From positions 1-40,412 of the IMG/VR virus record IMGVR_UViG_3300023284_000477: 40,412 bases of DNA; one strand, written 5' to 3'. Below are positions 2,424 to 40,412 of this stretch, in pieces. This stretch comes from a virus. The position numbers and the translations under genes were made by a program. Position 1 is the first letter of the stretch; the number at the start of each line of letters is the position of its first letter. Under the pieces are notes generated by a model. It saw nothing but the letters and a program-made list of their open reading frames with translations. It had not been told where the DNA came from and searched no databases.

Positions 2424-2896
2424 ATAGTCAAGAATTCTCAGATAAATTAGTAACGTTAGAGCCTTATTTCTTTAAAATTGCGCTAATGTACACGACCGAC
2501 AGGGAGCGTTCAAAAGACTTGGTTCAAGAAGTTATGACTAGATGTCTCGAAAATAGATCCAAATGGAACAGCGACAAGGGTCATCTAAGGCATTGGGGCG
2601 GAATAATTCTTAAAAATTTATGGATAGATGAATGGCGCAAGAATAGTAAATATACGTTTATCGATAATCCTGGGCTATCCGAGATCGAAAGAGGGTGTCC
2701 TGAATCAGTGTTGTGTGCAAAAGAATTAAACGAATTACTTGAATCAATGAATCCTAAATATGGAATTCCTTTGAAGATTAGAAGTTATGGCTTCAGTTAT
2801 AGGGAAATATCCGAGCAATTAAACATATCTGAAGGGAATGTCAAAATACAAGTACATCGAGCGCGTAAAGACTTACGTCAGAAAATAGCGTCATAA
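2420..2896 (+). CDS. Sigma-70 family (ECF-like) RNA polymerase sigma factor
   Basis: Region-2-like LVQEVMTRCLEN...LWIDEWRKNSK. Region-4 HTH is YGFSYREISEQLNISEGNVKIQVHRARKDLRQKI. Size is 158 aa. Confidence 0.8.
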   Translation: MNSQEFSDKLVTLEPYFFKIALMYTTDRERSKDLVQEVMTRCLENRSKWNSDKGHLRHWGGIILKNLWIDEWRKNSKYTFIDNPGLSEIERGCPESVLCAKELNELLESMNPKYGIPLKIRSYGFSYREISEQLNISEGNVKIQVHRARKDLRQKIAS

Positions 2897-4302
2897 TGCA
2901 AGCAACCGTCGTGTTCGAACAGAATTGGGACGCTATTCATCTGATGGCGTTCAATGAAGACGGATCGCCAAAGCTTGATGAAAAAGGCGATCATGAGCGC
3001 CGTTATCGATACATAATCAATCGCGGATCATCAAGATCTAGCAAGACAATATCACTGATTGACTGCTATGACCTATACGCAAGGCAGAACATGTCAAAAC
3101 GATTAACTGTCTGGCGTGATACGAAATCAGATTGCAAGAAGACGGTGCTGAAGGATGCGTTCAAACACCTGAAGCGAACTGATCGGTACATGATCCGGCA
3201 GCGATTCAACATCACTGACAGTATATTCACCTACCTTGACACCGACAGCACGTTCGAAATACACGGCACAGACGATGAAGAAACTGTTCACGGCCTTGAA
3301 CAGGATGCAGCTTGGTTCAATGAGCCTTACAAGATAAGCCGCGAAACATTCGATCAGATAGATCAGCGAACATCTGACTTCATATTCATTGACTACAATC
3401 CAAAAAAGGGGCACTGGGTTGAAGATTTAATGAAGGATAAGCGCGCGATTGTGATCGATTCTACGTTCAGGGACAACCCGTTTTGCCCTGTCGAGCAGCG
3501 AACAAAGATACTTTCTTATCAACCGGTCAGCATGTGCCGCCTAATAATAGACGAAAAGCTGACAATTAATGAGGCATTCGAATACGATCTTGAAGGCAAT
3601 CCGAATGAATACACTGATAAAGAGATTAAAGAACTGCTTAGATGCCGCGAAAATGAAGACAAGAACAGCGCATCGGATTTCAACTGGTCGGTGTATGGTC
3701 TAGGCATCAAGTCAGAGCGTCCAAATCGAATCTTTAGCTGGAATCCTATTTCACTTATCGACTACCAAGCTATTGATGAAAAGATCTATATCGGCACAGA
3801 TTGGGGCAAAGTCGATCCCTGGGGTATTGCTGAAGTGAAATATTATGACGGGGCGCTCTATGTTCGTGAACTGAACTACCTATCTGAAAACGAAATCAGA
3901 TCCAAGATGTCACAGACAGAGCAGATTCAAGCATCCGGTGAAGAAGAAGGAATCGTGACGCACATGTTCTATAAGCTTGACATAGACAAAAGCAACACTA
4001 TAATCGCTGACAATAACAGGCCGCTAAAGATTTCGATGCTCAGGCGTCATGGCTGGGACGCTCACGCTGCCAATAAGCTAAAGGGATCTATCATCGACGG
4101 CATCGATTTGCTGCATAATCTTCAGGTATTTTACACAATAGATTCTGAGAATGTAGAATTCGAACAGGAAAACTATTCATATCGTGTAGATCGTCACGGC
4201 ATTGTCCTTGAAGAACCTGAAGATGCAAACAATCACATGATGGATCTGATCAGGTATGTTGCGCTCTATCTGCAAAGAATGGGTATCATCAGGCTTATTT
4301 AA
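2896..4302 (+). CDS. terL: Terminase large subunit
   Basis: P-loop-like INRGSSRSSKTIS and Walker-B-like DAAWFNEP. Nuclease-half motifs are IGTDWGKVDPWG, ADNNRP and NNHMMDLIRY. TAATG coupling to the sigma gene. Confidence 0.9.
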   Translation: MQATVVFEQNWDAIHLMAFNEDGSPKLDEKGDHERRYRYIINRGSSRSSKTISLIDCYDLYARQNMSKRLTVWRDTKSDCKKTVLKDAFKHLKRTDRYMIRQRFNITDSIFTYLDTDSTFEIHGTDDEETVHGLEQDAAWFNEPYKISRETFDQIDQRTSDFIFIDYNPKKGHWVEDLMKDKRAIVIDSTFRDNPFCPVEQRTKILSYQPVSMCRLIIDEKLTINEAFEYDLEGNPNEYTDKEIKELLRCRENEDKNSASDFNWSVYGLGIKSERPNRIFSWNPISLIDYQAIDEKIYIGTDWGKVDPWGIAEVKYYDGALYVRELNYLSENEIRSKMSQTEQIQASGEEEGIVTHMFYKLDIDKSNTIIADNNRPLKISMLRRHGWDAHAANKLKGSIIDGIDLLHNLQVFYTIDSENVEFEQENYSYRVDRHGIVLEEPEDANNHMMDLIRYVALYLQRMGIIRLI

Positions 4303-26206: not shown

Positions 26207-26637
26207 AATACTTAATAATTATATTGATACTGACAGGCTGTTCTTCACAGTGGCATCTTCGAAGGGCTATCAAAAAAGACCCTTTGATTGTTCAGGTAGA
26301 TACATTGTCAATAATTGACACGGTGACATTCACTACTGAAACGATTCGAACTGATTCAACATTTTTTATATCAAAAGACACTGTGATAATTATCAAGGAT
26401 AAATTGACAATAAAGCACTTCATTCAAAACGATTCGGTTTATATTTGGGGTGAATGCGAAGGTGATACAATTGTTAAAATTCTTGAACGTGATGTCATTA
26501 TTGATAGGTGGATTTATCCCAAAAAGAAGTGGACTGAATATTTGCCGCCGACCTGGATTCTTGTCTGTGCGTTTATTTATTTAGCTTGGCGTCGATGGTT
26601 TAGAAAGGACAATCATCAGGCTGATGATCAAGACTAG
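26203..26637 (+). CDS. Unimolecular-spanin-like lipoprotein (lipobox plus C-terminal TM)
   Basis: The N-terminus MKYLIIILILTGC carries the lipobox LTGC. The middle is beta-strand-rich. The C-terminal TM is TWILVCAFIYLAW followed by RRWFRK. ATGA coupling to the amidase gene. Confidence 0.6.
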   Translation: MKYLIIILILTGCSSQWHLRRAIKKDPLIVQVDTLSIIDTVTFTTETIRTDSTFFISKDTVIIIKDKLTIKHFIQNDSVYIWGECEGDTIVKILERDVIIDRWIYPKKKWTEYLPPTWILVCAFIYLAWRRWFRKDNHQADDQD

Positions 26638-27016
26638 ATTCCGTTGATTCAAATGTAAAGTTTTCGGGCTTTCCTTTTTCATCGCGAACATATTGAAGAT
26701 GTTTCTTTTTATTTTTGGAATTACTAAGAACTTGAAGATTGTCTACGTGATAGCCTTCCCATTCTCTAATTCTGTCCACATGAAAACTATGTTTTTGCCT
26801 TCCCTTTCCGAACATATAATGTGTCTCAATAGCCCACTTTTTAAATTCTTCAAATGTTAGATTGAATTCTTTTCGACGTTTTTTGGCGTTACCTCTAAGA
26901 TTTTGATAAGCGTATTGAATAGGATTGTTTTCGGAATATCGTTTCTGTTTGCAACTAGGGCAAAGTGTTCTGTGTTTTTGTCTCTTTTTACGGCAATTTG
27001 GCGTTGAACATTTCAC
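26600..27016 (-). CDS. HNH endonuclease (zinc-ribbon N-terminus)
   Basis: CSTPNC...CPSC, then HVDRIREWEGYHVDNLQVLSNSKNKKKH as the HNH core. GTG start. The 3' end overlaps the spanin-like gene by 38 nt (convergent). Confidence 0.75.
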   Translation of the reverse strand: MKCSTPNCRKKRQKHRTLCPSCKQKRYSENNPIQYAYQNLRGNAKKRRKEFNLTFEEFKKWAIETHYMFGKGRQKHSFHVDRIREWEGYHVDNLQVLSNSKNKKKHLQYVRDEKGKPENFTFESTESSLDHQPDDCPF

Positions 27017-28546: not shown

Positions 28547-28559
28547 GTCTATCGTTTTT
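28544..28559 (-). promoter_or_regulatory. Start-codon-fused box AAAAACGATAGACATG (copy 3 of 6)
   Basis: It lies in an 11-nt spacer and overlaps the TAA stop of the PP-loop gene. There is no room for a promoter. Confidence 0.65.
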
Positions 28560-29451
28560 AGTATTTAGATTGAACACAGTGACCGTGTGACATCTTATAT
28601 TCAATCAGGTCGTCATTAGTCATGTGGCCGTATTTTTTAGTAACTTCTTCAAGCTTGGCCGGAAGCAAAGTCGCGCCCCAAACACCAAGATTTTTTTCGC
28701 CTTTATGTTGGTTAGCCGCGATCTTGTTTGCTTCAAGTTGAACCCATTTGTCAAACCATGTTCTTTTCAATCTGTAAAGATAAAGCAGTTCAATATCATT
28801 CATAAACGGACAAAGGATGCAGACGCTAGGAATAGGCAATTCATGTCCGACAGATTTGATATAGTCCTGACAAGCTTGACGATCCATTTGTTCAATTATC
28901 AACGGATAAACTTTGTTAACACATTCTCGCATCCATTTTGATGGGCTTTCTTCATTGGTTGACGCTCTCTTTTCTTCGCCTTTAGCGATGCCTATGATTA
29001 CATCAATCTTTCCGTTTACTTCAGTGAATTCTTTAGTTGCCGCTTTGCGTCCGACTTTAGCTGTATTATATTTTTCGTGAATATAGATTTCAAGAAATTT
29101 ATAAATCGGCTGAATCTTCAGCTTATCAGTGCAAGTTTTCGGAAATGCTTTGCTTCCGATCCTGTTTCCTTTTTCGTAAAATTTAATCAATCCGCCTTTC
29201 CAGGAATCAGATGTATAGGTGTAATCTTCAAGAAAGAAGAAATCAATCTTATGATCAGCGCAAAGTTTTTCAATTTCTTTGACGTGATCAAGCGTTTCTT
29301 GATTTTCATTTCCGGTGTTTGCCATGATGATGACTAAATCGCCTTTAACATGCTTGGCTTTAAATGATGGATCATAAATTATTTTGTAAAGAATTGCAGT
29401 CGAATCTTGTCCGCCCCCGAAACTTAAAAGTGTTAAATTATTGGTTGGCAT
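28558..29451 (-). CDS. PP-loop ATP-pyrophosphatase / PAPS-reductase-like protein
   Basis: The N-terminus LLSFGGGQDSTAILYKI matches the SGGxDS PP-loop. Also present are a CxxC (CILCPF) and a C-terminal SHGHC. Size is 297 aa. Confidence 0.7.
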   Translation of the reverse strand: MPTNNLTLLSFGGGQDSTAILYKIIYDPSFKAKHVKGDLVIIMANTGNENQETLDHVKEIEKLCADHKIDFFFLEDYTYTSDSWKGGLIKFYEKGNRIGSKAFPKTCTDKLKIQPIYKFLEIYIHEKYNTAKVGRKAATKEFTEVNGKIDVIIGIAKGEEKRASTNEESPSKWMRECVNKVYPLIIEQMDRQACQDYIKSVGHELPIPSVCILCPFMNDIELLYLYRLKRTWFDKWVQLEANKIAANQHKGEKNLGVWGATLLPAKLEEVTKKYGHMTNDDLIEYKMSHGHCVQSKY

Positions 29452-30398: not shown

Positions 30399-30956
30399 TT
30401 AAATTTTGAACACGCCACGTTTTATGAGTTCGAACACAATGTCGGCTTCATGAAGGGCGTCGTCAGCGCCGCGATGCTTTTGAATATATCCTGTGGCGAT
30501 CCCGAAATAGAAGTCCCAAGCCTCTTTTGCACTAGGGTTTTTATTCCTTCCGTTTTTACCCCTAGCATCAACAATCTTTCTTGATAGTTTCATCGGACAT
30601 GGAAGTTTTTTAGGAAAAACAAGCCCGACACGCTCAAGGAATCGGAAGTCAAATTCATTATTAAACGCTGTTATTCCGTTTGAGTATTCAAAAAGAATGT
30701 TTTGAATCTTCATTACTTGATTGTCAATTAAGTCACCTTTAAAGATGTCGGCTGTCGTCATAAATCCTTTTTCAACTATCCAGCATTCATTCAGTTCTTC
30801 TTCCGTTATGAATTGAGGCTTGAAAATTTCATCATAAATGATGTTTTTTGCCCCGCTGTCAATGTTAAGTTCCACGATTCCAATTTCTACAATTTCGTCA
30901 TCAGGTCTAAATCCAGTCGTTTCGATGTCGATTATCAATATTTTGTCTTGATTCAT
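30399..30956 (-). CDS. DEDDh 3'-5' exonuclease (DnaQ-like)
   Basis: ExoI is ILIIDIETTG, ExoII is AFNNEFDFRFL and ExoIII is HRGADDALHEADI. Confidence 0.85.
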   Translation of the reverse strand: MNQDKILIIDIETTGFRPDDEIVEIGIVELNIDSGAKNIIYDEIFKPQFITEEELNECWIVEKGFMTTADIFKGDLIDNQVMKIQNILFEYSNGITAFNNEFDFRFLERVGLVFPKKLPCPMKLSRKIVDARGKNGRNKNPSAKEAWDFYFGIATGYIQKHRGADDALHEADIVFELIKRGVFKI

Positions 30957-31345
30957 TCTAGTAGGTGTTTGTCTTGATAAATATTTCCTATTACTTCAAT
31001 TGTTCCGCCATCAATAACTGTGCATAATGGAAGCCCGTGATCGCCTAATTTTAGCTGAAAAGCCCCATTTACAAAAATCACTTCTTGAATAGTTGGTGAT
31101 ATATGTGCGGGTGAATTTGTTTCAACAATGTGGCCTTCATATATTTCGGCTTCGTTCTTGTCTTTTAATCCGGTGTATTGGCAATTTGTTCCGGTTTTTA
31201 TTACATGATAAACATAATCACAAACTATATTAAAATCATTCCAAGATCTAATTCCGGCAATCCCAACGTCGCCATCGTGTAGCAAATCGCCATACACCCA
31301 CTTTCCTTCTTGGGTTAGCCCTCTAAATTTTACTTCCCTGCTCAT
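30953..31345 (-). CDS. YopX family protein
   Basis: Motifs KFRGLTQEGKWVYGDLL, QYTGLKDKNEAEIYEGHIV and IEVIGNIYQDKHLLE. Confidence 0.8.
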   Translation of the reverse strand: MSREVKFRGLTQEGKWVYGDLLHDGDVGIAGIRSWNDFNIVCDYVYHVIKTGTNCQYTGLKDKNEAEIYEGHIVETNSPAHISPTIQEVIFVNGAFQLKLGDHGLPLCTVIDGGTIEVIGNIYQDKHLLE

Positions 31346-32210
31346 TCCCTAAAAGTGTTAAAGTATTAAAAATAAATTCACGACATTCTTTGACTCGGAT
31401 TTCAATCTGATCAATCGCGCCTTTTTCGAATTCAATGTCAAAGGCTTTGATTCTGTGCTGTATTTTAACTTTACCGAATGTCATCTTATCGACAAACTTG
31501 TCATAAAGATCTTTATCAAGATCGCCGTATCCATTAAAAAATGCGTAGTTCCTGGCCTCACGTTCGATCAAATATTCTGGGGTGTCCATAAGACAATATA
31601 TGACGCGGTGCTTGGTTCTTTTAGTCAGGTGCATATATCCCTGGCCTTGCCAGTAATAATCCATATTAGGAAGGCCGGATTCAAACAGGGGAAAAGTTGA
31701 CTGATCCCAGTTGGCTTTTGTGTCAATAGTTTCGTCTGGCTGAACGTTGTCAGGTGTTCCGGTCATGAATTTATTCTTATAATTTCTTTCGTTCTTGGTC
31801 AATAATCCGTATCCCAAATTATCAGACACAAAATCAAGCGCATGATCTTCGACAACATTTCCTTTTTCGATGTACTTGCTTTTGATTTCCTTCCTTCTTC
31901 CGTAGAATTCAGGCTGCTCTTTAAGCCAGTCAAGACAATAAGTTTTTGCAGTGTCGCCTAAAATGACAACATCTTTCATTTTCTGCAACCCTGGTAATTC
32001 ATCACATTGCTTCTTTATTGATTCATATAGTTTCAATCCGCCGGCGCCGTCTTTTGTCTTCATTTCATCGTACCGTTTTTCGTCTTTCGCCAGTTTTTCA
32101 ACGGCTTCAGTATATTTAATCATGTTTGACTTTCCTCTAGGATTGGTCATTATTTTTCCGATTGCAGAACATCGGATCTTGAATCTTTCTGCGATTTCTT
32201 TAATGTTCAT
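31323..32210 (-). CDS. YqaJ/lambda-Exo-like recombination exonuclease (PD-(D/E)xK)
   Basis: The N-terminus has RCSAIGKIMT. The catalytic-like segment is MTGTPDNVQPDETIDTKANWD. It lies in an operon with an ERF annealase. Confidence 0.7.
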   Translation of the reverse strand: MNIKEIAERFKIRCSAIGKIMTNPRGKSNMIKYTEAVEKLAKDEKRYDEMKTKDGAGGLKLYESIKKQCDELPGLQKMKDVVILGDTAKTYCLDWLKEQPEFYGRRKEIKSKYIEKGNVVEDHALDFVSDNLGYGLLTKNERNYKNKFMTGTPDNVQPDETIDTKANWDQSTFPLFESGLPNMDYYWQGQGYMHLTKRTKHRVIYCLMDTPEYLIEREARNYAFFNGYGDLDKDLYDKFVDKMTFGKVKIQHRIKAFDIEFEKGAIDQIEIRVKECREFIFNTLTLLGNEQGSKI

Positions 32211-32401
32211 TATTTTAGTTTTTTGGTTAATCTTATTTCAAGTTCATATTTTGGTTCAGTATAAATCCCTGTTGAAACATCACTGATGGTTGATTTCAAA
32301 TTCATTTTCTCGCCGTCCTTCAGCATTGTTTTTTCAAATTCGTTTTCGGGAATAAGTCTAATTTTAGATATCCCGTTTTTTATAATTAATTCAGAAGTCA
32401 T
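32210..32401 (-). CDS. Hypothetical protein
   Basis: 63-aa ORF, coupled on both sides. Confidence 0.5.
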   Translation of the reverse strand: MTSELIIKNGISKIRLIPENEFEKTMLKDGEKMNLKSTISDVSTGIYTEPKYELEIRLTKKLK

Positions 32402-33069
32402 GATTTCAGTAGTTTTTCATTTTCCTTTGTTAGCTTATATTTCTTTTTAATCGCCGTAAGCGTTGCCGATTTATTCTTCAAAGACTTCTTTGCTGCATCC
32501 CATTTCTTGTGGTCTGGCGTCAGTTCTTCCTTTTTATTTTCTGACGGTTCATTTCCGTCAGTATCATCGTCAGCAGAAAGCCCGACGGCACCCTTTAATG
32601 TATATCGCTTCAGATAGCTAACGGTTGAACCTATTGACTGAATAGTGTTCTTGTTGCCAGAACCGTCTTTTGGTGCTGTCATAGAAGTTCTTTCTTCATG
32701 ACCGTCAATGTGTGAAACGACACAAGTGATGTTTATTTCGCCGAGTGCTTCTTTGGTTTCCCATCTATAAGAAAGGCCACATTTTGATAATATTGGATCA
32801 ATCGCTTTCTGTATGACAGAAAGCGGCATGAATTTATATTGAAATTTATCGTTGTAAAAAACTTTCTTCTCTTTTTTAAGTTCCGGCTTATTGCCTTGGA
32901 ATTCAACCATCGCGCGTTTAAATGATTTTGAAGCTTCATTTCTGTCGAAGCGTTCTTTTAGTTCCATTAGTTTTTCAAGTTTGCCGATGTCAGCGTCTTT
33001 TTCAACTGCTAATTCAAGCAACATTATATAGTTGTTTTTCGCTGGCAAATTATCTTTTTTCATTGTCAT
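32398..33069 (-). CDS. ERF-family single-strand annealing protein
   Basis: Motifs LSVIQKAIDPILSKCGLSYRWE, IQSIGSTVSYLKRYTLKGAVGLSADDDTDG and a Lys-rich tail. Confidence 0.75.
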   Translation of the reverse strand: MTMKKDNLPAKNNYIMLLELAVEKDADIGKLEKLMELKERFDRNEASKSFKRAMVEFQGNKPELKKEKKVFYNDKFQYKFMPLSVIQKAIDPILSKCGLSYRWETKEALGEINITCVVSHIDGHEERTSMTAPKDGSGNKNTIQSIGSTVSYLKRYTLKGAVGLSADDDTDGNEPSENKKEELTPDHKKWDAAKKSLKNKSATLTAIKKKYKLTKENEKLLKS

Positions 33070-33685: not shown

Positions 33686-34036
33686 ATGATTTCAGGACAA
33701 ATCAATTTAACAAAGTTGACTTCTGCTTTGACGAGCAGAAAAGGAAAAGACGGTACGATGATCGAAGGGGTTTTTATCCCCATTGATCATAATTATTTAT
33801 TCAAATCTGATAAAGGAAATGTTTATATGAACATTATTGCCTTTGATTTGAAAGACCCAGATGATGGCGATACTCATTTAGTAAAAATATCATTACCTAA
33901 AGATGTTCGTGAAAAAATGAGCAAAGAAGAACAAAATGAAATGCCTATAATTGGAAATCTGAAGGTTTGGGGTGATAGCGAAGGTCGAGAAGAAACCGTC
34001 GAAACCCTTGAAGAAGATGACGATCTGCCTTTCTAG
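33686..34036 (+). CDS. Putative ssDNA-binding protein with an SSB-tip-like C-terminus (EEDDDLPF)
   Basis: 116 aa. The C-terminus LEEDDDLPF* mimics the bacterial SSB tip DDDIPF. It lies in the replication module. Confidence 0.5.
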   Translation: MISGQINLTKLTSALTSRKGKDGTMIEGVFIPIDHNYLFKSDKGNVYMNIIAFDLKDPDDGDTHLVKISLPKDVREKMSKEEQNEMPIIGNLKVWGDSEGREETVETLEEDDDLPF

Positions 34037-34335
34037 TGTATTCAAGATGTTATCCCCCGTTTCATGTTAATCAGGAAGTTCATCTTGTTAACTCTGATAT
34101 AGGAAGGACGCTAAGAACTGTTCGAATCGCCTATATACTTGATTACTATTTTAATAATGGCGAGAATTCGGCTGACATTCGCGGAAACAAAAAAGGCTGG
34201 GTTGCACTAATTAAATACTCGTATAATGGAAGGAAATATTTCATCAAAGAAGTCAATGAATCATGTTTCGACTTTAATAGTCGAGTCGATTTCAACGGGT
34301 CGTCGGTATTTGGCGCGTCCCTGCAAACAACGTGA
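34036..34335 (+). CDS. Hypothetical protein
   Basis: 99-aa ORF with a GTG start overlapping the upstream TAG (TAGTG). Confidence 0.45.
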   Translation: MYSRCYPPFHVNQEVHLVNSDIGRTLRTVRIAYILDYYFNNGENSADIRGNKKGWVALIKYSYNGRKYFIKEVNESCFDFNSRVDFNGSSVFGASLQTT

Positions 34336-34440
34336 TCGCATCGTTCTAAAGAATAGAATCACTCAATCGGGCAAGATAATGGATGCCAGGATTATGGAGT
34401 CCGTTGAACGTAAAGATTATTTGATTGAATGAATTGAGCG

Positions 34441-34596
34441 TGCTAGAAGATAAACGGTGAGTATGGTTCATCCAACGCCGCAGCCTTTGTAGGGCGTCGT
34501 TTATTGGAATGAGATTGCATTTAGACTAGTTCTGCACTTCTAAGACTACAAACTTAGACACTCTCAATAGGCTCGGCAGAAATGTCGGGCTTTTTT
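34441..34596 (+). ncRNA. Candidate structured non-coding transcript ending in a terminator
   Basis: Nested stems are ataaacg/cgtttat (34450-34456 / 34498-34504) and acgcc/ggcgt (34475-34479 / 34493-34497). Three TWAGAC repeats lie at 34521, 34541 and 34554. The terminator is at 34571-34596. No convincing ORF. Confidence 0.3.
34571..34596 (+). terminator. Rho-independent terminator
   Basis: Stem gctcggc/gtcgggc (5 Watson-Crick and 2 G-U pairs), loop agaaat, then T6 (34591-34596). Confidence 0.6.
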
Positions 34597-34597
34597 A

Positions 34598-34875
34598 TGA
34601 AGGTATTTTAAAAATAAATACCTTCAGATGAAGGTAAAATACCTTCTTTTTCTAAAAATCGTCAATTGTCTTTTTACTGTTTTTTACTTTCTGAAGGTAT
34701 TTATATTGTATTTATATCATATTTTAGAAGGTTTTTTACTCAGTATCAACAGGGCTTTGAAGGTATATAAGGTATTTTATCCTATTTTATTATGGGGGGG
34801 GTGTGATTCTTACTAAAAAAGAGTCTTTTTAAACATACCCTAAGTATATAGAGAAAAATACCTTATATACCTTCA
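34598..34875. repeat. Iteron array / putative origin of replication upstream of the primase-helicase
   Basis: The TGAAGGTAT(TT) core occurs at 34598-34608 (+), 34616-34626 (-), 34630-34646 (palindrome), 34692-34702 (+), 34725-34735 (degenerate) and 34758-34778 (+, double unit). The perfect 21-bp inverse of the double unit is at 34855-34875. A G8 tract lies at 34794-34801. The background is AT-rich. Confidence 0.6.
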
Positions 34876-34936
34876 GAGTTGTTTATTCAAAAAATATTCT
34901 TATGTTTGCAGTGTTAATTTTAATTTAATTTATTTA

Positions 34937-35161
34937 ATGAAACTATTCATAACCAACAAGGTTGAATTTGAAGATCAGTTTCCTGATACTTCTGGCGAAA
35001 TTCATAAAAAGGCATTTAATATTTTAAGGGAATCCGTTTCCGAGAATAATATACCAATAATATTATTGGCTGATTATTCAGACTTAAATTGTGCTTTATT
35101 CAATTTTAAGCGAATATTGGATGATGTTTATTTTTATGAATTCACAGGTTCAGCAGGATGA
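34937..35161 (+). CDS. Hypothetical protein
   Basis: 74-aa ORF with ATGA coupling to the primase-helicase gene. Confidence 0.55.
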   Translation: MKLFITNKVEFEDQFPDTSGEIHKKAFNILRESVSENNIPIILLADYSDLNCALFNFKRILDDVYFYEFTGSAG

Positions 35162-37701
35162 TTGAATCAGCTTTAAAATACATCAAGCAGGGTTATTCAG
35201 TAATCCCAACATTTAAAGATAAAAGCCCTTCGCTCGGAACTTGGGCTAAATATCAGAAGGACATAATGACACCAGAGGTTGCAAAAAATGTTTTTGTGAA
35301 CGCTCATAGTATTGCTATAATTAGCGGTGGTATTTCAAAGAATAGACTAGTTGTCGATGTTGATTGTAAATATGATATTACCGGGAAACTTTGGACAGAT
35401 CTTGTCCAATTAATAAAAGATAATGACGAAGACTTATTCGACAAGCTTGTCGTAGTAAAAACACCGTCTGGAGGGTATCATATAATTTTCAATACAAAAA
35501 AGCTCCCCTCAAGATCAACAAAATTAGCAAACAGACCTTTAACAGATAATGAAAAAGAGGAAAATCCTAAAGAAAAATGCAAAGTTCTCATTGAAACAAA
35601 AGGCGAAGGAGGGTATTGTTTAGCCCCTCCTTCAAAAGGGTATAAATACCTTTCCAAGCGAGAAAAACCAATAATTTTAACAGACAACGAGGTTGACTTA
35701 ATCTTGACTGCTTCCCGGTCATTTAATCAAGTTTTCGAAGAGAAGAAAGTAAACACAAAAAAAGCATTTGACAACAATATTTATACCGAAAATCCATTTG
35801 ATGATTACAATAACAGGGGGGATTGCATTGAGATACTAGAATCCTCTGGATGGAAAGTTGTGTCTCAAACAAATAGGAAGATTTATCTAAAACGCCCTGG
35901 GGATTCTTCAGCAAAAACAAGCGGTAACTTTTCCCTCGAACATAATAGATTTTACTGTTTTTCGACATCTACTGAATTTGAATCTGACATTTCTTATTCT
36001 CCTGTTGCAATTTATTGCCTAATAAAACACGGTAATGATTGGAAGAAATGTGTAAAAGATTTGATTGATTCGGGCTTCGGAAGGGAAAGAAAAAAGATAA
36101 GTTCGGCCTATTCAAAATTAATAAAGGAACTTGTTGAAGATGGGATTGAGGATGCCGATATAATAGACGAGATTAGAAAAGTTGGGGGGAAAAGTATTGA
36201 AGATTGCGAAATTATATTCGAGAATTTTAGGGCTAATCAAGGGAAGACAGTTCTTCAATTCTGGTATATAAAGGATGGAAGCCCGCCATCTATAAAAATA
36301 CATCTTACAAAGTTTGTCCGATTTATTTCAAATCACCTAAATATTTATAGATATAAATTATCAGGAGCTGAGACGATTTTCAGATATATCAGAATTACTG
36401 GGAATATAATTGAAGAAGTAAAACTGACCGATGTCAAAGATGAAATAAAAGATTATATCAATTCTCTTGAATCTGTTTTTGACGGAATTTACCGGGACAG
36501 CTTAATGGAGATTGTACAGAGGCAAAGTAACATATTGTTTTCTGACACCCAAATGGAATTCTTAGAATATACAGATGTTGAAGTGTTAAGGCCCGAAAAA
36601 GATTCGGCATTTTTCCCATTTAAAAACTGCATGGTTAAAATTTCCAAGGATAAGAAGATTGAATGTTTGGACTACAAGGCTTTGGGTAAAAAAGTGATAT
36701 GGAGATCAAGCATAATTAATCATGAATTTGATATTGATTTTGATTTTGAAGAGTTTTCATTCACTAAATTTTTGAGCAAAATAAACGATGATGATGACGA
36801 CAGAATTAATTATTGCAAGCAATTGGTTGGGTATTCTTTGCATGAATATAAAGATGAAATGAAGCCTTTTTCAGTGATATTTGGAGAGGAAAGTGCTGAT
36901 AGTTTACAAGGCGGCGGTACTGGGAAAGGGCTTTTAACCAAGGCTATTGACAGGGTGATCAAAACCATCACCATTGATGGAAAAGGATTTCAGGCTGACA
37001 AGCCTTTTGCCTTTCAACGAGTTACTTTGGACTGTAAATTAATACTTCTTCAAGACACTGAAAAAAACTTTAAATTTGAAAGCTTATTTAGCAAAATAAC
37101 TGACGGGCTTACCATTGAGAGAAAAAATAAAGATGAATTATTTCTTAATTATGAAGATTCTCCAAAATTTCTTATCACTACAAACTATAACATAGACAAT
37201 TCGTCTCAAGCGTCGAACAGACGTCAGATTTTGCTTGAATTCAGTAATTTCTTTAATGATAAAAATACACCTATTGATTATTTGGGTGAGTATTTATTCA
37301 TTGGATGGGAAAAAAAACAATGGGACAAATTTTATACCGTAATGTTTGATTGTATCATCAAATATTTAGACGAAGGAATTACCGAAGTAAAGGAAACAGA
37401 CACCTCAAGACAAAAGAAAGTAACCAACAGCTTTACAGAAATGTTTTATGAATGGTTTTCTTCGTATGTAAGCGTGTCATATACTTCAATTTCTGACTTA
37501 CATGACAATTTTTTAATACAAAGCGATATCAGTATAAAGGCTTATTCTAGGATAAGATTTTCCAAGGCGTTACAATTTTCATGCAACGTGTTTGATATCG
37601 AACTAAAAAGCCATAAAGCACCTGTAACTAATAAAAAACTTTATTTCTGGGGGAAAAACGAACCAAAACCCGAAGAACCGGATGGGGATTTACCTTTTTA
37701 A
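35158..37701 (+). CDS. Bifunctional primase-polymerase / SF3 (D5/P4-like) helicase with a DLPF C-terminus
   Basis: Prim-Pol motifs are GYSVIPTFKDKSP, VVDVDCK, VKTPSGGYHIIF and ETKGEGGYCLAPPS. Walker A is GGGTGKGLLTKA and Walker-B-like is LILLQDTE. The C-terminus is EEPDGDLPF*. Confidence 0.9.
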   Translation: MIESALKYIKQGYSVIPTFKDKSPSLGTWAKYQKDIMTPEVAKNVFVNAHSIAIISGGISKNRLVVDVDCKYDITGKLWTDLVQLIKDNDEDLFDKLVVVKTPSGGYHIIFNTKKLPSRSTKLANRPLTDNEKEENPKEKCKVLIETKGEGGYCLAPPSKGYKYLSKREKPIILTDNEVDLILTASRSFNQVFEEKKVNTKKAFDNNIYTENPFDDYNNRGDCIEILESSGWKVVSQTNRKIYLKRPGDSSAKTSGNFSLEHNRFYCFSTSTEFESDISYSPVAIYCLIKHGNDWKKCVKDLIDSGFGRERKKISSAYSKLIKELVEDGIEDADIIDEIRKVGGKSIEDCEIIFENFRANQGKTVLQFWYIKDGSPPSIKIHLTKFVRFISNHLNIYRYKLSGAETIFRYIRITGNIIEEVKLTDVKDEIKDYINSLESVFDGIYRDSLMEIVQRQSNILFSDTQMEFLEYTDVEVLRPEKDSAFFPFKNCMVKISKDKKIECLDYKALGKKVIWRSSIINHEFDIDFDFEEFSFTKFLSKINDDDDDRINYCKQLVGYSLHEYKDEMKPFSVIFGEESADSLQGGGTGKGLLTKAIDRVIKTITIDGKGFQADKPFAFQRVTLDCKLILLQDTEKNFKFESLFSKITDGLTIERKNKDELFLNYEDSPKFLITTNYNIDNSSQASNRRQILLEFSNFFNDKNTPIDYLGEYLFIGWEKKQWDKFYTVMFDCIIKYLDEGITEVKETDTSRQKKVTNSFTEMFYEWFSSYVSVSYTSISDLHDNFLIQSDISIKAYSRIRFSKALQFSCNVFDIELKSHKAPVTNKKLYFWGKNEPKPEEPDGDLPF

Positions 37702-37711
37702 AACTAAGATT

Positions 37712-38392
37712 ATGCAATATATGGGAAGTAAAAATAGGATAGCAAAACACTTGCTACCTATAATGTTGGAAAATAGAGGCAGCAAGACTTGGGTTGAGCC
37801 TTTTGTCGGTGGCGCTAACATGATTGACAAAGTTAATGGTAGGCGAATAGGCGCTGATAATCATAAACATTTGATCTCGCTGCTTATAGCCTTACAAAAT
37901 GGGTGGACGCCTCCAGTAAAAATAAGTAAAGAAATGTATTACGAAATTAAAAATAATCAAGACAAACATAGTGATGAACTTATCGGATTTGTAGGATTTC
38001 TCTGCAGCTTTGGTGGTAAATGGTGGGGCGGATACGCTGCAAATAAAAAGGGAGACAATTATGCAGATAGAGGCAGTAGGATGCTTGTAAAACAAGCGAA
38101 AAATTTTGACGGTATCGATTTTAAAAATAAATCTTATAAAGATTTGGACATTCCTGCCGATAGTTTGATTTATTGCGATCTGCCGTATAAGGGAACAACG
38201 GCATATAAGGGCGGCTTTAATCATGATGAATTCTGGGAGTGGTGCAAGCAAAAAGCAAAAGAAGGACATCAACTATTTATAAGCGAATATAATGCACCAA
38301 AAGATTTTAAATGTATAAAAGAGGTGATTCACAAAACGATACTTGATAAAAACAGTCAATATAAGAGGATTGAAAAGTTGTTCACAATATGA
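37712..38392 (+). CDS. DNA N6-adenine methyltransferase (Dam/D12 class)
   Basis: The start is taken at MQYMGSKNRIAKHLLP. Motif I is VEPFVGGANM and motif IV is the DPPY variant YCDLPYKGT. Confidence 0.85.
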   Translation: MQYMGSKNRIAKHLLPIMLENRGSKTWVEPFVGGANMIDKVNGRRIGADNHKHLISLLIALQNGWTPPVKISKEMYYEIKNNQDKHSDELIGFVGFLCSFGGKWWGGYAANKKGDNYADRGSRMLVKQAKNFDGIDFKNKSYKDLDIPADSLIYCDLPYKGTTAYKGGFNHDEFWEWCKQKAKEGHQLFISEYNAPKDFKCIKEVIHKTILDKNSQYKRIEKLFTI

Positions 38393-39139: not shown

Positions 39140-39778
39140 ATGAAGATATTAATTGCATGTGAAGAAAGCCAAGCGGTTTGCATTGAATTCAGGAAGAAAG
39201 GTCATGAAGCCTATTCGTGTGATATTCTGCCGTGTTCAGGCGGTCATCCTGAATGGCATATTCAAGGAGATGTTGTAAAACTACTAAATCAAGAATGGGA
39301 TATGATAATAGCTTTCCCTACTTGCACCTACTTGACAAATGCAGGAACTCGTCACTTTAGCAGAAGAATAAACACAGAAGAAAAAGTGGTGGCTAGAGAG
39401 AAAAAACGTGAAAAAGCAGCTGCATTCTTTATGCTATTTATTAATGCGAATTGTGATAAAATGGTAGTTGAAAACCCAGTAGGATATATGAATAGTTCGT
39501 ACAGAAAACCAGACCAAATAATTCATCCTTACTATTTTGGTGATAATTTTAAAAAAAGGACGTGTTTGTGGATTAAAGGTTTGCCAATATTGGAGCATAC
39601 AAACAGGCTTCCAGAACCAGAGCCGATGTATATCCTACAAGGTAAATTAGGAAAAGGAAAGAAAATAGGATGGTGCGAAGGAATCAAAGGAACGACTGGT
39701 GGTCAGGCCGGTAGAGCTAAAGCAAGAAGCAAAACATTCCCTGGAATAGCTAAAGCGATGGCTAGTCAATGGGGTTAA
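39140..39778 (+). CDS. Short C5-cytosine-methyltransferase-like protein (no obvious target-recognition domain)
   Basis: ILIACEESQAV occupies the motif-I position. FPTCTYLTNAG resembles motif IV (PC catalytic dipeptide). VVENPVG resembles motif VI (ENV). Only 212 aa. Confidence 0.5.
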   Translation: MKILIACEESQAVCIEFRKKGHEAYSCDILPCSGGHPEWHIQGDVVKLLNQEWDMIIAFPTCTYLTNAGTRHFSRRINTEEKVVAREKKREKAAAFFMLFINANCDKMVVENPVGYMNSSYRKPDQIIHPYYFGDNFKKRTCLWIKGLPILEHTNRLPEPEPMYILQGKLGKGKKIGWCEGIKGTTGGQAGRAKARSKTFPGIAKAMASQWG

Positions 39779-40048: not shown

Positions 40049-40412
40049 AGTCATCGATATAGCTGGATCTAAGCTGTCGAAAATGACGACGCAAATGACG
40101 ACGGGTGCAAAAAAGGCTCTGTTAGCTGCGCTTGGTCAAGAGGATGTCGAAGAAAAAGGCGGCGATCTTAGCTCGGTTATTCAGGATAAGACGCCGAAAG
40201 TTGTTCAGGAAAAGATTGACGTCACTAAATACAACCGGCATAATCGGCGTACACAGGCTTTTGTAATACATAACAAAGAAAGCGACTTATACATGCGCCG
40301 GACTATCGATTTCAAAACGCAAGTGGTTACGCGAAAAGACGTTCCGCTTGAAGAAGCAACGACGTTTAAATTCAAGTATTTGATGCGAGTGATCGATGAA
40401 GTGCCTGGTAGA
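40023..40412 (+). CDS. Hypothetical protein, 5' part of the junction-spanning ORF (continues at 1-198)
   Basis: The ATG at 40023 gives MKSKKKETKVIDIAGSKLSKMTTQ.... The frame is open to the window end and identical to bases 1-144 over the repeat. Confidence 0.7.
   Translation, partial: MKSKKKETKVIDIAGSKLSKMTTQMTTGAKKALLAALGQEDVEEKGGDLSSVIQDKTPKVVQEKIDVTKYNRHNRRTQAFVIHNKESDLYMRRTIDFKTQVVTRKDVPLEEATTFKFKYLMRVIDEVPGR
40269..40412. repeat. Terminal direct repeat, copy 2 (identical to 1-144)
   Basis: Exact 144-bp identity read by eye. Confidence 0.9.

Follow-up and report, generated by a model that had tools for sequence, protein, structure and literature searches.

Acidic C-terminal tails ending in Phe are known from bacterial SSBs, whose C-terminal tip (SSB-Ct) acts as an interaction hub, and from phage T7. 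Gammaproteobacterial SSBs end in DIPF (PMC3991886), and those of F. psychrophilum and P. torquis, both Flavobacteriia, end in DLPF (PMC3991886 Table 1). The part of SSB that RecT/Redbeta annealases recognise is its last 7 residues (10.1101/2020.04.14.041095). In T7, gp2.5 (...EDGDF) and gp4 (...NDTDF) indeed have matched acidic tails whose last residue is Phe, as a sequence-only reading of the DNA studied here had stated, and these tails bind the phage polymerase (Richardson-lab literature, as cited). SSBs of the DUF669/phage N4 type were proposed partly on the basis of acidic C-terminal tails and of genomes without a known SSB (Kazlauskas et al. 2016). Fusions of an AEP primase with an SF3 helicase are represented by ASFV C962R PrimPol, poxvirus D5/E5, SaPI5 and the P4 alpha family; no SSB-type tip is recorded for these in the retrieved material.

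The window, i.e. the whole stretch of 40,412 nt that was analysed, is a complete phage genome with a 144-bp exact terminal repeat. Its relatives are Cellulophaga and Polaribacter phages, which makes Flavobacteriia the likely host class. Translation of the ORFs gave exactly the three C-termini that had been read earlier, namely ...LEEDDDLPF for a 116-aa protein, ...PEEPDGDLPF for an 847-aa primase-helicase and ...HQPDDCPF for a 138-aa nuclease, each followed directly by the stop codon. The features concerned are:

26600..27016, minus strand: HNH/endonuclease-VII-like protein, 138 aa (PHROG 1035/3322/3118), tip DDCPF at codons 26603-26617
30399..30956, minus strand: DnaQ/DEDDh-type 3'-5' exonuclease (PF00929, PHROG 192)
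31323..32210, minus strand: recombination exonuclease (PHROG 5715), part of the recombination module
32398..33069, minus strand: ERF-family single-strand annealing protein (PF04404 at 1.4e-22)
33686..34036, plus strand: 116-aa protein of the 'A1 family' (PHROG 36980/18029; ORF translation and PHROGs match)
33971..34015, plus strand: variable acidic linker, residues 96-110 of the 116-aa protein (alignment, pLDDT)
34016..34033, plus strand: tip DDDLPF of the 116-aa protein (family alignment)
34599..34874, no strand assigned: nine GAAGGTATWT repeats in both orientations, AT-rich and non-coding, upstream of the primase-helicase operon
35158..37701, plus strand: AEP primase (Prim-Pol) fused to a D5/P4-type SF3 helicase, 847 aa (PF09250, TIGR01613)
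37651..37698, plus strand: disordered tail of the primase-helicase, residues 832-847, NEPKPEEPDGDLPF (AF2)
37681-37698, plus strand: tip DGDLPF of the primase-helicase (translation)

As in T7, the small tipped protein and the primase-helicase of one phage both bear acidic tails with a terminal Phe. The T7 tails, however, lack the Pro (their last two residues are DF) and are unlike the host tip DIPF, and their receptor is T7's own polymerase-thioredoxin complex, whereas the present phage has no polymerase. Its helicase is of the AEP/SF3 and not of the SF4/Toprim type. The matched tails of a T7-type replisome are found here, but neither its polymerase nor its combination of a gp2.5-like OB fold with a Toprim+DnaB protein; the 116-aa protein showed no similarity to gp2.5. 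Three related loci (L003, L011 and L016) do bear the tip on a true T7-gp4-like Toprim+DnaB protein. The finding extends the known principle of the SSB-Ct hub and of the matched gp2.5/gp4 tails of T7.

Distribution and conservation of the tips

The three tips share the layout of SSB-Ct: they sit at the extreme C-terminus, the last residue is Phe, Pro precedes it (-2), position -3 is hydrophobic and the residues before that are acidic (at -4 to -6 in bacterial SSBs). In sequence they are the same as the bacterial tip or nearly so. DDDLPF is also the tip of S. aureus and Bacillus SsbA. The phage tip can be called host-type because published Flavobacteriia SSBs end in DLPF (PMC3991886), the host class being derived from the phage relatives and not from an identified host. 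Unlike in bacteria, the carriers are not SSB OB folds but a protein of unrecognised fold, an AEP-primase/SF3 helicase and an HNH-like nuclease.

Within the genome such ends are rare. Across all six frames, only 4 stop-to-stop ORFs (minimum 30 aa) have PF as their last two residues, and the tipped proteins make up 3 of the 4; among ORFs of at least 60 aa, these three are also the only ones with a terminal Phe and at least 3 acidic residues in the last 10. The background of 'acidic + PF' ends outside the three families is ~0.16% (2,117 ORFs from 83 related loci), from which the probability that at least 3 of 59 genes end in this way is ~1e-4. Conservation among homologues is far stronger evidence than this probability. 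In the A1 family, PF ends were found in 134/149 and DLPF ends in 96/149 mutually distant representatives (<=50% identity), and in the alignment D113 and F116 are invariant while D112, L114 and P115 are at least 90% conserved. Primase-helicase homologues end in F in 83/120 and in PF in 48/120 cases; the consensus is [DE][DE][DE][IVL]PF. In the position-specific composition over the 83, I/V/L occupies -3 and positions -4 to -8 are acidic; residue -3 varies (L, V, I, A, C, S, P) and is looser than in host SSB tips. All nuclease homologues found end in xPF (DLPF, DVPF, ETPF and MEPF in one set; SAPF, DVPF, NCPF and DQPF in a further set). The survey of C-termini thus found the tail retained, where its lack in homologues had been named as grounds for dismissing it, and the tip is under selection in each of the three families. 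That the tips are chance C-termini without function, for which nothing speaks except the shortness of the motif, is vanishingly improbable: this reading is already refuted by the homologue surveys, which found conservation in hundreds of distant homologues of three unrelated families, and by the exclusive association of the tip with helicases among large proteins. Because the D-L-P-F peptide is conserved across hundreds of relatives, it very likely is a real recruitment tag.

The association with helicases was evident in loci carrying an A1 gene, where the tip also occurs on non-homologous replicative helicases (SF3 and SF4). Among 228 ORFs of at least 300 aa, it was present in 20/33 members of helicase/primase clusters vs 0/195 others (Fisher p=2e-20). 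The tipped architectures are Prim-Pol+VapE, BT4734-AEP+PriCT+VapE, BT4734+DnaB_C, Toprim+DnaB_C, DnaB and DUF5906. The sequence-only reading had singled out the tip on a Prim-Pol/SF3 helicase, but it is not peculiar to this type: it is a movable add-on, borne by at least five helicase/primase architectures. No polymerase was found among the large proteins near the tipped helicases.

The tipped proteins and the replication module

The primase-helicase matches PF09250 at residues 5-161 (1.5e-11) and TIGR01613 at residues 515-704 (1.3e-8), the latter a domain-level match below the full-length cut-off. The catalytic DxD and His of Prim-Pol are present, as are the Walker A/B motifs, sensor Asn and Arg finger of SF3; D67, D69, H108, G586-K590 (GGxGK590), D633, N676 and R688/R689 are invariant. 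The AF2 model (pLDDT 86.7) retrieved ASFV PrimPol, MPXV E5 and SaPI5 primase-helicase by Foldseek at E 1e-13 to 1e-11. The protein matches the described AEP+SF3 fusions in its domain architecture, in its catalytic residues and in predicted fold. Secondary structure in the model ends at residue 831, after which pLDDT falls to 65 and then to 48. Tipless close homologues stop right at the last conserved motif; the tip is an appended tail of ~15 residues beyond the last conserved element. Because many integrated relatives, including the closest full-length ones from Chitinophagia, lack the tip, it is dispensable for the primase-helicase itself.

In the 116-aa protein a core rich in beta strands, covering about residues 1-95, leads into a variable, acidic linker and then into the tip. 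The A1 family is large and uncharacterised (searches gave 22 homologues, 80 IMG/VR loci and, at E<=1e-3, 976 representatives; the clusters at 50% identity number about 1,000), and all PHROGs matches, which extend to the last residue, are of unknown function. Throughout the family a conserved core is followed by a hypervariable linker, with unconserved alignment columns of varying length, and by a near-invariant DDxDLPF tip; the homologue of Cellulophaga phage phiSM ends in EEDDLPF. The AF2 model of the protein (pLDDT 83) has the topology b1-b2-b3-a-b4-b5-a-a-b6, and pLDDT falls to 67-76 in the linker. As in bacterial SSBs, a small folded domain is followed by a disordered, poorly conserved linker and a C-terminal D-D-D-[IL]-P-F; the PF00436 OB fold was not found in the protein. 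No match to Pfam was obtained at E<=0.01, nor for 22 family members at E<=10, DUF669 included, and Foldseek against PDB gave nothing below E=1.6. In hhalign with E. coli SSB only the tip aligned, end to end with DDDIPF, and searches with Pfam, PDB HMMs, Foldseek and hhalign gave no relation of the core to SSB or OB folds. The label "SSB-like" thus found no backing in fold or sequence, and, with a core that matches no recognised fold or family, the protein does not demonstrably belong to the SSBs. The argument made for DUF669/N4-type SSBs, an acidic tail in a genome without a known SSB, applies equally to this family, for whose core, however, no link to OB folds was found. No canonical SSB (PF00436) was found in the complete genome, and no E. 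coli-type or gp2.5-type SSB among 2,117 ORFs around A1 genes.

Most likely the 116-aa protein is the ssDNA-coating or hub protein of the phage. A basic family core (median pI 8.8), an acidic tail (pI 4.05) and the location between the ERF module and the primase-helicase fit the role of an SSB; the core in this phage, at pI 6.1, is not basic, unlike the family median. In the core F39, K67 and K72 are invariant and Y47, K19, K56 and H64 are conserved at >=90%; these aromatic and basic residues and the family median core pI of 8.8 have an indirect bearing on putative ssDNA binding.

The search for polymerase genes compared every ORF of at least 290 aa with PHROGs and several of these also with Pfam; in the replication module, the small ORFs too were compared with Pfam, some of them also with NCBIfam or PHROGs. 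The scanned ORFs of the complete genome contained no such gene, in agreement with the earlier view that the phage lacks one; the only polymerase-type matches were to the Prim-Pol domain and the DnaQ-like exonuclease, so that the latter is, beyond the Prim-Pol domain, indeed the sole polymerase-associated function. NCBIfam DEDD exonuclease and epsilon models match this exonuclease well below their cut-offs. A helicase, primase, annealase and exonucleases are present in the genome, but neither clamp nor clamp loader. That a phage of this size has no polymerase, which had been thought noteworthy, is ordinary, because only ~49% of dsDNA viruses encode one (PMC4889955).

Possible partners of the tip

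On balance, we lean towards the view that the tips are functional docking peptides of the SSB-Ct type, copies of the host SSB tip that let the three phage proteins recruit host enzymes. A short acidic motif with a free Pro-Phe carboxyl terminus would be held out on a disordered linker, and because the tips copy the Flavobacteriia host SSB tip, the 116-aa protein, the hexameric AEP-primase/SF3 helicase and the HNH-like nuclease may plug into pockets normally taken by the host SSB tail, a function likened here to the SSB-Ct interaction hub. The most likely use would be to bring replisome and repair enzymes of the host to the phage fork and tether them there, because helicase, primase, annealase and exonucleases are encoded but polymerase, clamp and clamp loader are not. 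Counting against such a tether, no chi subunit, the link between SSB tail and Pol III in E. coli, is known outside Proteobacteria. Weighing against this reading too are the core of the 116-aa protein, for which no relation to SSB families was found and which is not basic in this phage, the tipless integrated relatives of the primase-helicase, the loose -3 position of helicase tips, and the Pro-less tips of two relatives described below. Host recruitment is what we infer; a receptor encoded by the phage, for instance the neighbouring ERF annealase, fits the data just as well. This annealase, whose gene is transcribed divergently from the 116-aa gene, is a candidate phage-side client and probably uses the tip as well, and the DnaQ-like exonuclease is a possible client. 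The order ERF gene, small ORF, A1 gene is conserved in two related loci (L001 and L002).

It is rather unlikely, if conceivable, that the tails form a closed phage circuit as in T7, binding a phage partner and coordinating a phage-only machine for recombination-dependent replication. Candidate partners would be the ERF annealase, the recombination exonuclease, the DnaQ-like exonuclease and a putative DNA-binding groove of the 116-aa protein itself. Precedents are the T7 tails that bind the phage polymerase (Richardson-lab literature, as cited) and the annealases that read the last 7 residues of SSB, the ERF gene being a conserved neighbour. Furthermore, two genomes (L165 and L166) have lost the Pro both from the helicase tip and from the tip of an adjacent ~220-aa protein (EIDF/DDLEF and DFIF/EELDF). 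This joint loss is expected if the tips co-evolve with a phage receptor, and points to a putative receptor that changes along with them and may be encoded by the phage; the covariation comes, however, from two genomes only. Moreover, the dominant tip is exactly that of the host-class SSB, and the polymerase must still come from somewhere. Improbable, too, is the idea that the 116-aa protein, instead of being an SSB, is a decoy, a small bearer of the SSB tip that titrates host SSB-interacting nucleases, helicases and restart proteins off host or phage DNA, in takeover or anti-defence, with the helicase and nuclease tips a separate matter. A core without a recognisable DNA-binding fold, nearly neutral in this phage, and a tip conserved far better than any other part of the family would suit a decoy. 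The core is well conserved too, however, and basic family-wide, its conserved position in the replication/recombination module and the failure to find another SSB fit a fork protein, and the same tip on helicases would be left unexplained.

That the tip is a proteolysis tag, a ClpXP degron setting the half-life, or a beta-clamp-binding peptide is very improbable. In some strains of Streptococcus mutans, ClpXP treats LPF at a C-terminus as a degron, and in UA159 LPF alone sends GFP to ClpXP (PMC5143411); this degron is active in certain strains only, not in E. coli or other streptococci (PMC5143411), and helicase tips accept many residues at -3, which the degron did not. The annotation of phage phiSM, one of those with an A1 homologue, includes a processivity factor, but the tips read D-[DG]-D-L-P-F and lack the clamp motif QL[SD]LF, having no Gln, no adjacent hydrophobic pair and a Pro between L and F.

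Returning to host recruitment, a wider version is put forward tentatively, namely that Bacteroidota phages use a portable 'SSB-tip code', the tip having been acquired independently by a new SSB family, by SF3/SF4 helicases and by a nuclease to give a hybrid replisome. To host enzymes, the helicase and ssDNA coat of a polymerase-less phage would then look like host SSB; the new SSB family would be one without a recognisable OB fold, and the helicase tip would stand in for the contact between DnaB and tau, which a foreign helicase is unable to make. The coupling of forks to host polymerase in polymerase-less helicase-primase phages is poorly understood beyond a few models, and a conserved six-residue tag on the helicase, copied from host SSB, is a directly testable handle. 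The A1 family with its 976 representatives is flagged as a likely SSB or hub protein missed by current annotation. A rule suggested for unannotated Bacteroidota phages is that a terminal acidic-xPF behind a disordered linker marks replication-fork proteins. The tip might aid host prediction and, because annealases read the SSB tip, might help to port annealase-based recombineering to Bacteroidota.

All six exact genomic copies of GAAGGTATWT lie within the 34599..34874 cluster, a candidate origin or operator array.

C-terminal tips and genome layout

Translation of all three ORFs agreed exactly with the C-termini noted in the sequence-only reading, which had likened them to the SSB-type C-terminal docking peptide, an acidic stretch followed by xPF (here called the tip):

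26600-27016, minus strand, 138-aa HNH-like protein ending ...HQPDDCPF (stop)
33686-34036, plus strand, 116-aa protein ending ...LEEDDDLPF (stop)
35158-37701, plus strand, 847-aa primase-helicase ending ...PEEPDGDLPF (stop)

When all six frames are scanned for stop-to-stop ORFs of 30 aa or more, only four in the window end in PF, and three of these are the tipped proteins. A terminal Phe with at least 3 acidic residues in the last 10 aa is found solely in the three tipped proteins among ORFs of at least 60 aa. The background frequency of acidic xPF ends was ~0.16 % (2,117 ORFs of related loci, the three tipped families excluded), from which the probability of three such ends among 59 genes is ~1e-4.

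The first 144 bp of the window are repeated exactly and in direct orientation at 40269-40412, and the window therefore represents a complete phage genome of ~40.3 kb, with the repeat reflecting either circular assembly or true terminal repeats. By protein similarity it is closest to Cellulophaga and Polaribacter phages, which probably places the host in the Flavobacteriia. Bases 1-26,000 are filled with packaging, head, tail and lysis genes (small terminase, ECF-type sigma factor, large terminase, portal, major head protein, tape measure, amidase). A recombination module is located in a minus-strand block at 27-33 kb:

28558-29451, minus strand, PAPS-reductase-like protein
30399-30956, minus strand, DnaQ-like exonuclease
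31323-32210, minus strand, exonuclease
32398-33069, minus strand, ERF annealase
within 27-33 kb, minus strand, YopX

The plus-strand block from 33.4 kb starts with a 65-aa ORF, the 116-aa protein, a 99-aa ORF and an AT-rich repeat region, and continues with a 74-aa ORF, the primase-helicase and two DNA methyltransferases.

The claim that no DNA polymerase is encoded was confirmed by profile searches of the ORFs of at least 290 aa and of the small ORFs in the replication module, in which the Prim-Pol domain was the only polymerase match; no PF00436 SSB was found among these ORFs. Among the large ORFs of relatives no polymerase was found near tipped helicases, the candidates being structural proteins, SF2 helicases and SNF2-methyltransferase fusions. 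A missing polymerase is ordinary for such a phage. A global survey of dsDNA viruses found helicases in 73 %, primases in 62 %, SSBs in 50 % and polymerases in 49 %, and small genomes of these viruses depend on host components (PMC4889955).

Conservation of the tip in three protein families

The 116-aa protein belongs to a large family without annotation (A1 family), with 22 close homologues and with members on 102 IMG/VR contigs, 80 of which were fetched. In an exhaustive profile search, 976 representatives (50 % identity) reached E<=1e-3, and 521 of them E<=1e-10. The alignment shows a conserved core of ~95 residues, followed by ~20 residues varying in sequence and length and by a near-invariant terminus, D-D-x-D-L-P-F, a layout typical of bacterial SSB. 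In the best 149 representatives the end is PF in 134, LPF in 114 and DLPF in 96; several of the members without a PF end have conservative variants (DLPW, DLPY, DLQF) or are apparently truncated.

The identity of the core is less clear. Alignment of the 116-aa protein with E. coli SSB by hhalign was confined to the last 17 residues, which align end to end (DDDLPF/DDDIPF). The core found no match in Pfam (window protein and all 22 members, E<=10), NCBIfam, PDB profile searches, Foldseek against PDB or hhalign against T7 gp2.5, and Foldseek against BFVD viral models returned uncharacterised phage homologues only. The AF2 model, which is confident (pLDDT 83), has the order b1-b2-b3-helix-b4-b5, followed by two helices and a sixth strand, a predicted strand order compatible with, though not confirming, an OB fold. 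Across the family the core is basic (median pI 8.8) and the tail acidic (pI 4.05), whereas the core of the window protein is near neutral; aromatic and basic residues are conserved in the alignment. Synteny is conserved as well, the gene lying between ERF and the primase, and in Cellulophaga phage phiSM the homologue, ending EEDDLPF, adjoins the helicase. A search of 1.2 Mb around A1-family members revealed neither a canonical SSB nor one of the gp2.5 type. The earlier designation of the 116-aa protein as SSB-like is unproven, fold and profile searches matching no SSB family. It is a reasonable hypothesis, not a result, in view of the basic core and acidic tail, the conserved residues, the synteny and the lack of another SSB; DUF669 was put forward as an SSB family on the same grounds (PMC4889955).

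The primase-helicase contains a Prim-Pol domain (residues 5-161) and matches a P4-family primase C-terminal/SF3 helicase model at residues 515-704. The AEP catalytic residues D67, D69 and H108 and the SF3 motifs GGxGK590, D633, N676 and R688/R689 are invariant in 40 homologues, and among solved structures the protein is closest to ASFV PrimPol, monkeypox E5 and the SaPI5 primase-helicase. Its AF2 model (pLDDT 86.7) is folded until about residue 831; the tip is located on the ~15-residue tail that follows, predicted with low confidence and without secondary structure. Of 120 homologues, with identities down to 26 %, 83 end in Phe, against a baseline of ~6 % for ORFs, and 48 in Pro-Phe. In these tails acidic residues are enriched at positions -4 to -8, with I, V or L at -3, while tails without terminal Phe are on balance basic rather than acidic. 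Close homologues lacking the tip end directly after the last conserved motif, which indicates that the helicase tail is an appended module.

In loci carrying an A1 gene, proteins without homology to the window helicase bear the tip too. The tipped architectures are Prim-Pol + VapE, BT4734-type AEP + PriCT + VapE, BT4734-type AEP + DnaB_C, Toprim + DnaB_C (the architecture of T7 gp4), stand-alone DnaB, and DUF5906-only and DnaB-like helicase proteins. When all 228 ORFs of 300 aa or longer in A1 loci were clustered, strict tips occurred in 20 of the 33 members of primase/helicase clusters versus 0 of the 195 other ORFs (Fisher p=2e-20), the latter including SF2 helicases, exonucleases, methyltransferases, terminases and tail proteins. 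Judged by this distribution, replicative helicases carry the tip as a portable module. The 777-aa BT4734-type primase of one related locus (L002:10839-13172) ends in ...APDIPFR (stop), an SSB-type tip plus one residue; either the tip is decaying or the extra residue is an artefact of sequencing or annotation.

Of the integrated helicase relatives in named bacterial genomes a minority carry the tip, most of them Bacteroidota (Pedobacter, Sphingobacterium, Mucilaginibacter, Flavobacterium, Saprospiraceae). Neither the closest Chitinophagia relatives of full length nor any relative from Planctomycetota, Acidobacteriota or Victivallales in the genomes scanned has it. As regards a link between tip variant and host phylum, position -3 of the tips is highly variable, and the tipped relatives from outside Bacteroidota are few: they end in EFPF (Legionellaceae), EPPF (Myxococcales) and NTPF (Syntrophomonadaceae). 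The tip is therefore gained and lost, and this speaks for an accessory role in recruitment and against a catalytic one.

The 138-aa protein matches endonuclease VII/HNH PHROGs, and all homologues found end in xPF, both in a large protein database (DLPF, DVPF, ETPF, MEPF) and in the fetched loci (SAPF, DVPF, NCPF, DQPF). A third, unrelated family of these phages thus conserves the terminal Pro-Phe. The survey of homologues shows the tip retained in all three families, though not universally in the helicase. A glutamine-amidotransferase-like protein of 206 aa in another related locus (L075:13185-13805, minus strand) ends in DDEQLPF; in the 83 loci no other protein of 150-300 aa carries a tip, and this one is not a member of the three main families.

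Host SSB termini and possible receptors

In the two Flavobacteriia studied, Flavobacterium psychrophilum and Psychroflexus torquis, SSB ends in DLPF, and the SSB cloning primers decode to ...VENDLPF and ...EEDDLPF before the stop; elsewhere the terminus is DIPF (gammaproteobacteria) or DVPF (Desulfotalea) (PMC3991886). The phage tips therefore equal the SSB tip of the host class and are not just acidic residues with a Phe. The SsbA tip of S. aureus and Bacillus is DDDLPF as well. Three families of phage proteins carry a host-type SSB C-terminal tip (SSB-Ct) on a disordered tail. The peptide is under strong purifying selection, and among large ORFs it is associated exclusively with fork proteins. 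The observation of shared tips is confirmed and considerably strengthened, and its interpretation as host recruitment partly supported.

Host recruitment is plausible and the most economical reading. The tails would dock in SSB-Ct-binding pockets, by which the helicase, the putative ssDNA-coating or hub protein and the nuclease would offer host enzymes a docking peptide in the way SSB does; such mimicry would bring host enzymes of replication and repair to the phage fork. A foreign SF3 helicase is not expected to make the host DnaB-clamp-loader contact, which makes recruitment by the tip attractive. The main rival is a closed circuit as in T7, where gp2.5 ends in ...EDGDF and gp4 in ...NDTDF and both tails are reported to bind the phage polymerase. 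In the window phage the product of the neighbouring, conserved ERF gene could be the receptor, since RecT/Redbeta annealases read the last seven residues of SSB (10.1101/2020.04.14.041095). Two relatives that lack an A1 gene have Pro-less tips on both the helicase and an adjacent ~220-aa protein (EIDF/DDLEF in L165, DFIF/EELDF in L166), a covariation within genomes that hints at a shared receptor, possibly phage-encoded, but is seen in two genomes only; in a third such relative (L167) the helicase has no tail while the ~220-aa protein ends in DDDDVPF. A decoy function of the 116-aa protein is a minor alternative to recruitment, as is a role of the tip as ClpXP degron, although LPF acts as such in some S. 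mutans strains only (PMC5143411). A beta-clamp-binding motif was rejected because the tip does not fit the consensus.

The ~220-aa proteins with acidic, Phe-ending tails (L165:8658-9335, L166:7974-8624, L167:7751-8428), all beside the primase-helicase, match only PHROGs 6706 and 19605, which have no assigned function, with no PDB match, and possibly represent further unrecognised SSB-type families.

The principle itself is known from the SSB-Ct hub and the matched tails of T7. The searched literature, of incomplete coverage, contained no description of SSB-type tips on phage helicases beyond T7, of a host-identical SSB tip on AEP/SF3 primase-helicases or on several unrelated helicase architectures, of such a tip on an HNH-like nuclease, or of a very large uncharacterised 116-aa family defined by its tip; given this coverage, a prior description of the tipped helicases, the nuclease or the A1 family is possible.

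Other features of the genome

A transcription-factor gene is located between the two terminase genes, which is an unusual location:

1899-2423, small terminase (GP3_package)
2420-2896, ECF-type sigma factor (Sigma70 regions 2 and 4)
2896-4302, large terminase

Near the genome end a homing-endonuclease-like gene (308-823) encodes NUMOD4, HNH_3 and AP2 domains, and a related NUMOD4/HNH_3 gene is located between the A1 gene and the primase-helicase in a relative (L001, 3264-3713). The two DNA methyltransferases 3' of the helicase (37682-38392 and 39140-39778) are of the D12/Dam class and the PHROG 757 type and, together with the PAPS-reductase-like gene, possibly have DNA-modification functions. 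In relatives, SNF2-helicase/methyltransferase fusions occupy the slot after the helicase (L016:11191-13791, L046:3728-5977).

Nine copies of GAAGGTATWT, six of them exact, occur in both orientations within 276 bp at 34599-34874, in AT-rich (~25 % GC) non-coding DNA directly upstream of the operon of the 74-aa ORF and the primase-helicase. Every exact copy in the genome falls within this region. Allowing at most 1 mismatch, 15 copies were found genome-wide versus 6.6 expected, a number reached in 0 of 100 shuffles. The repeats are candidates for the iterons of a replication origin or for a set of operators.
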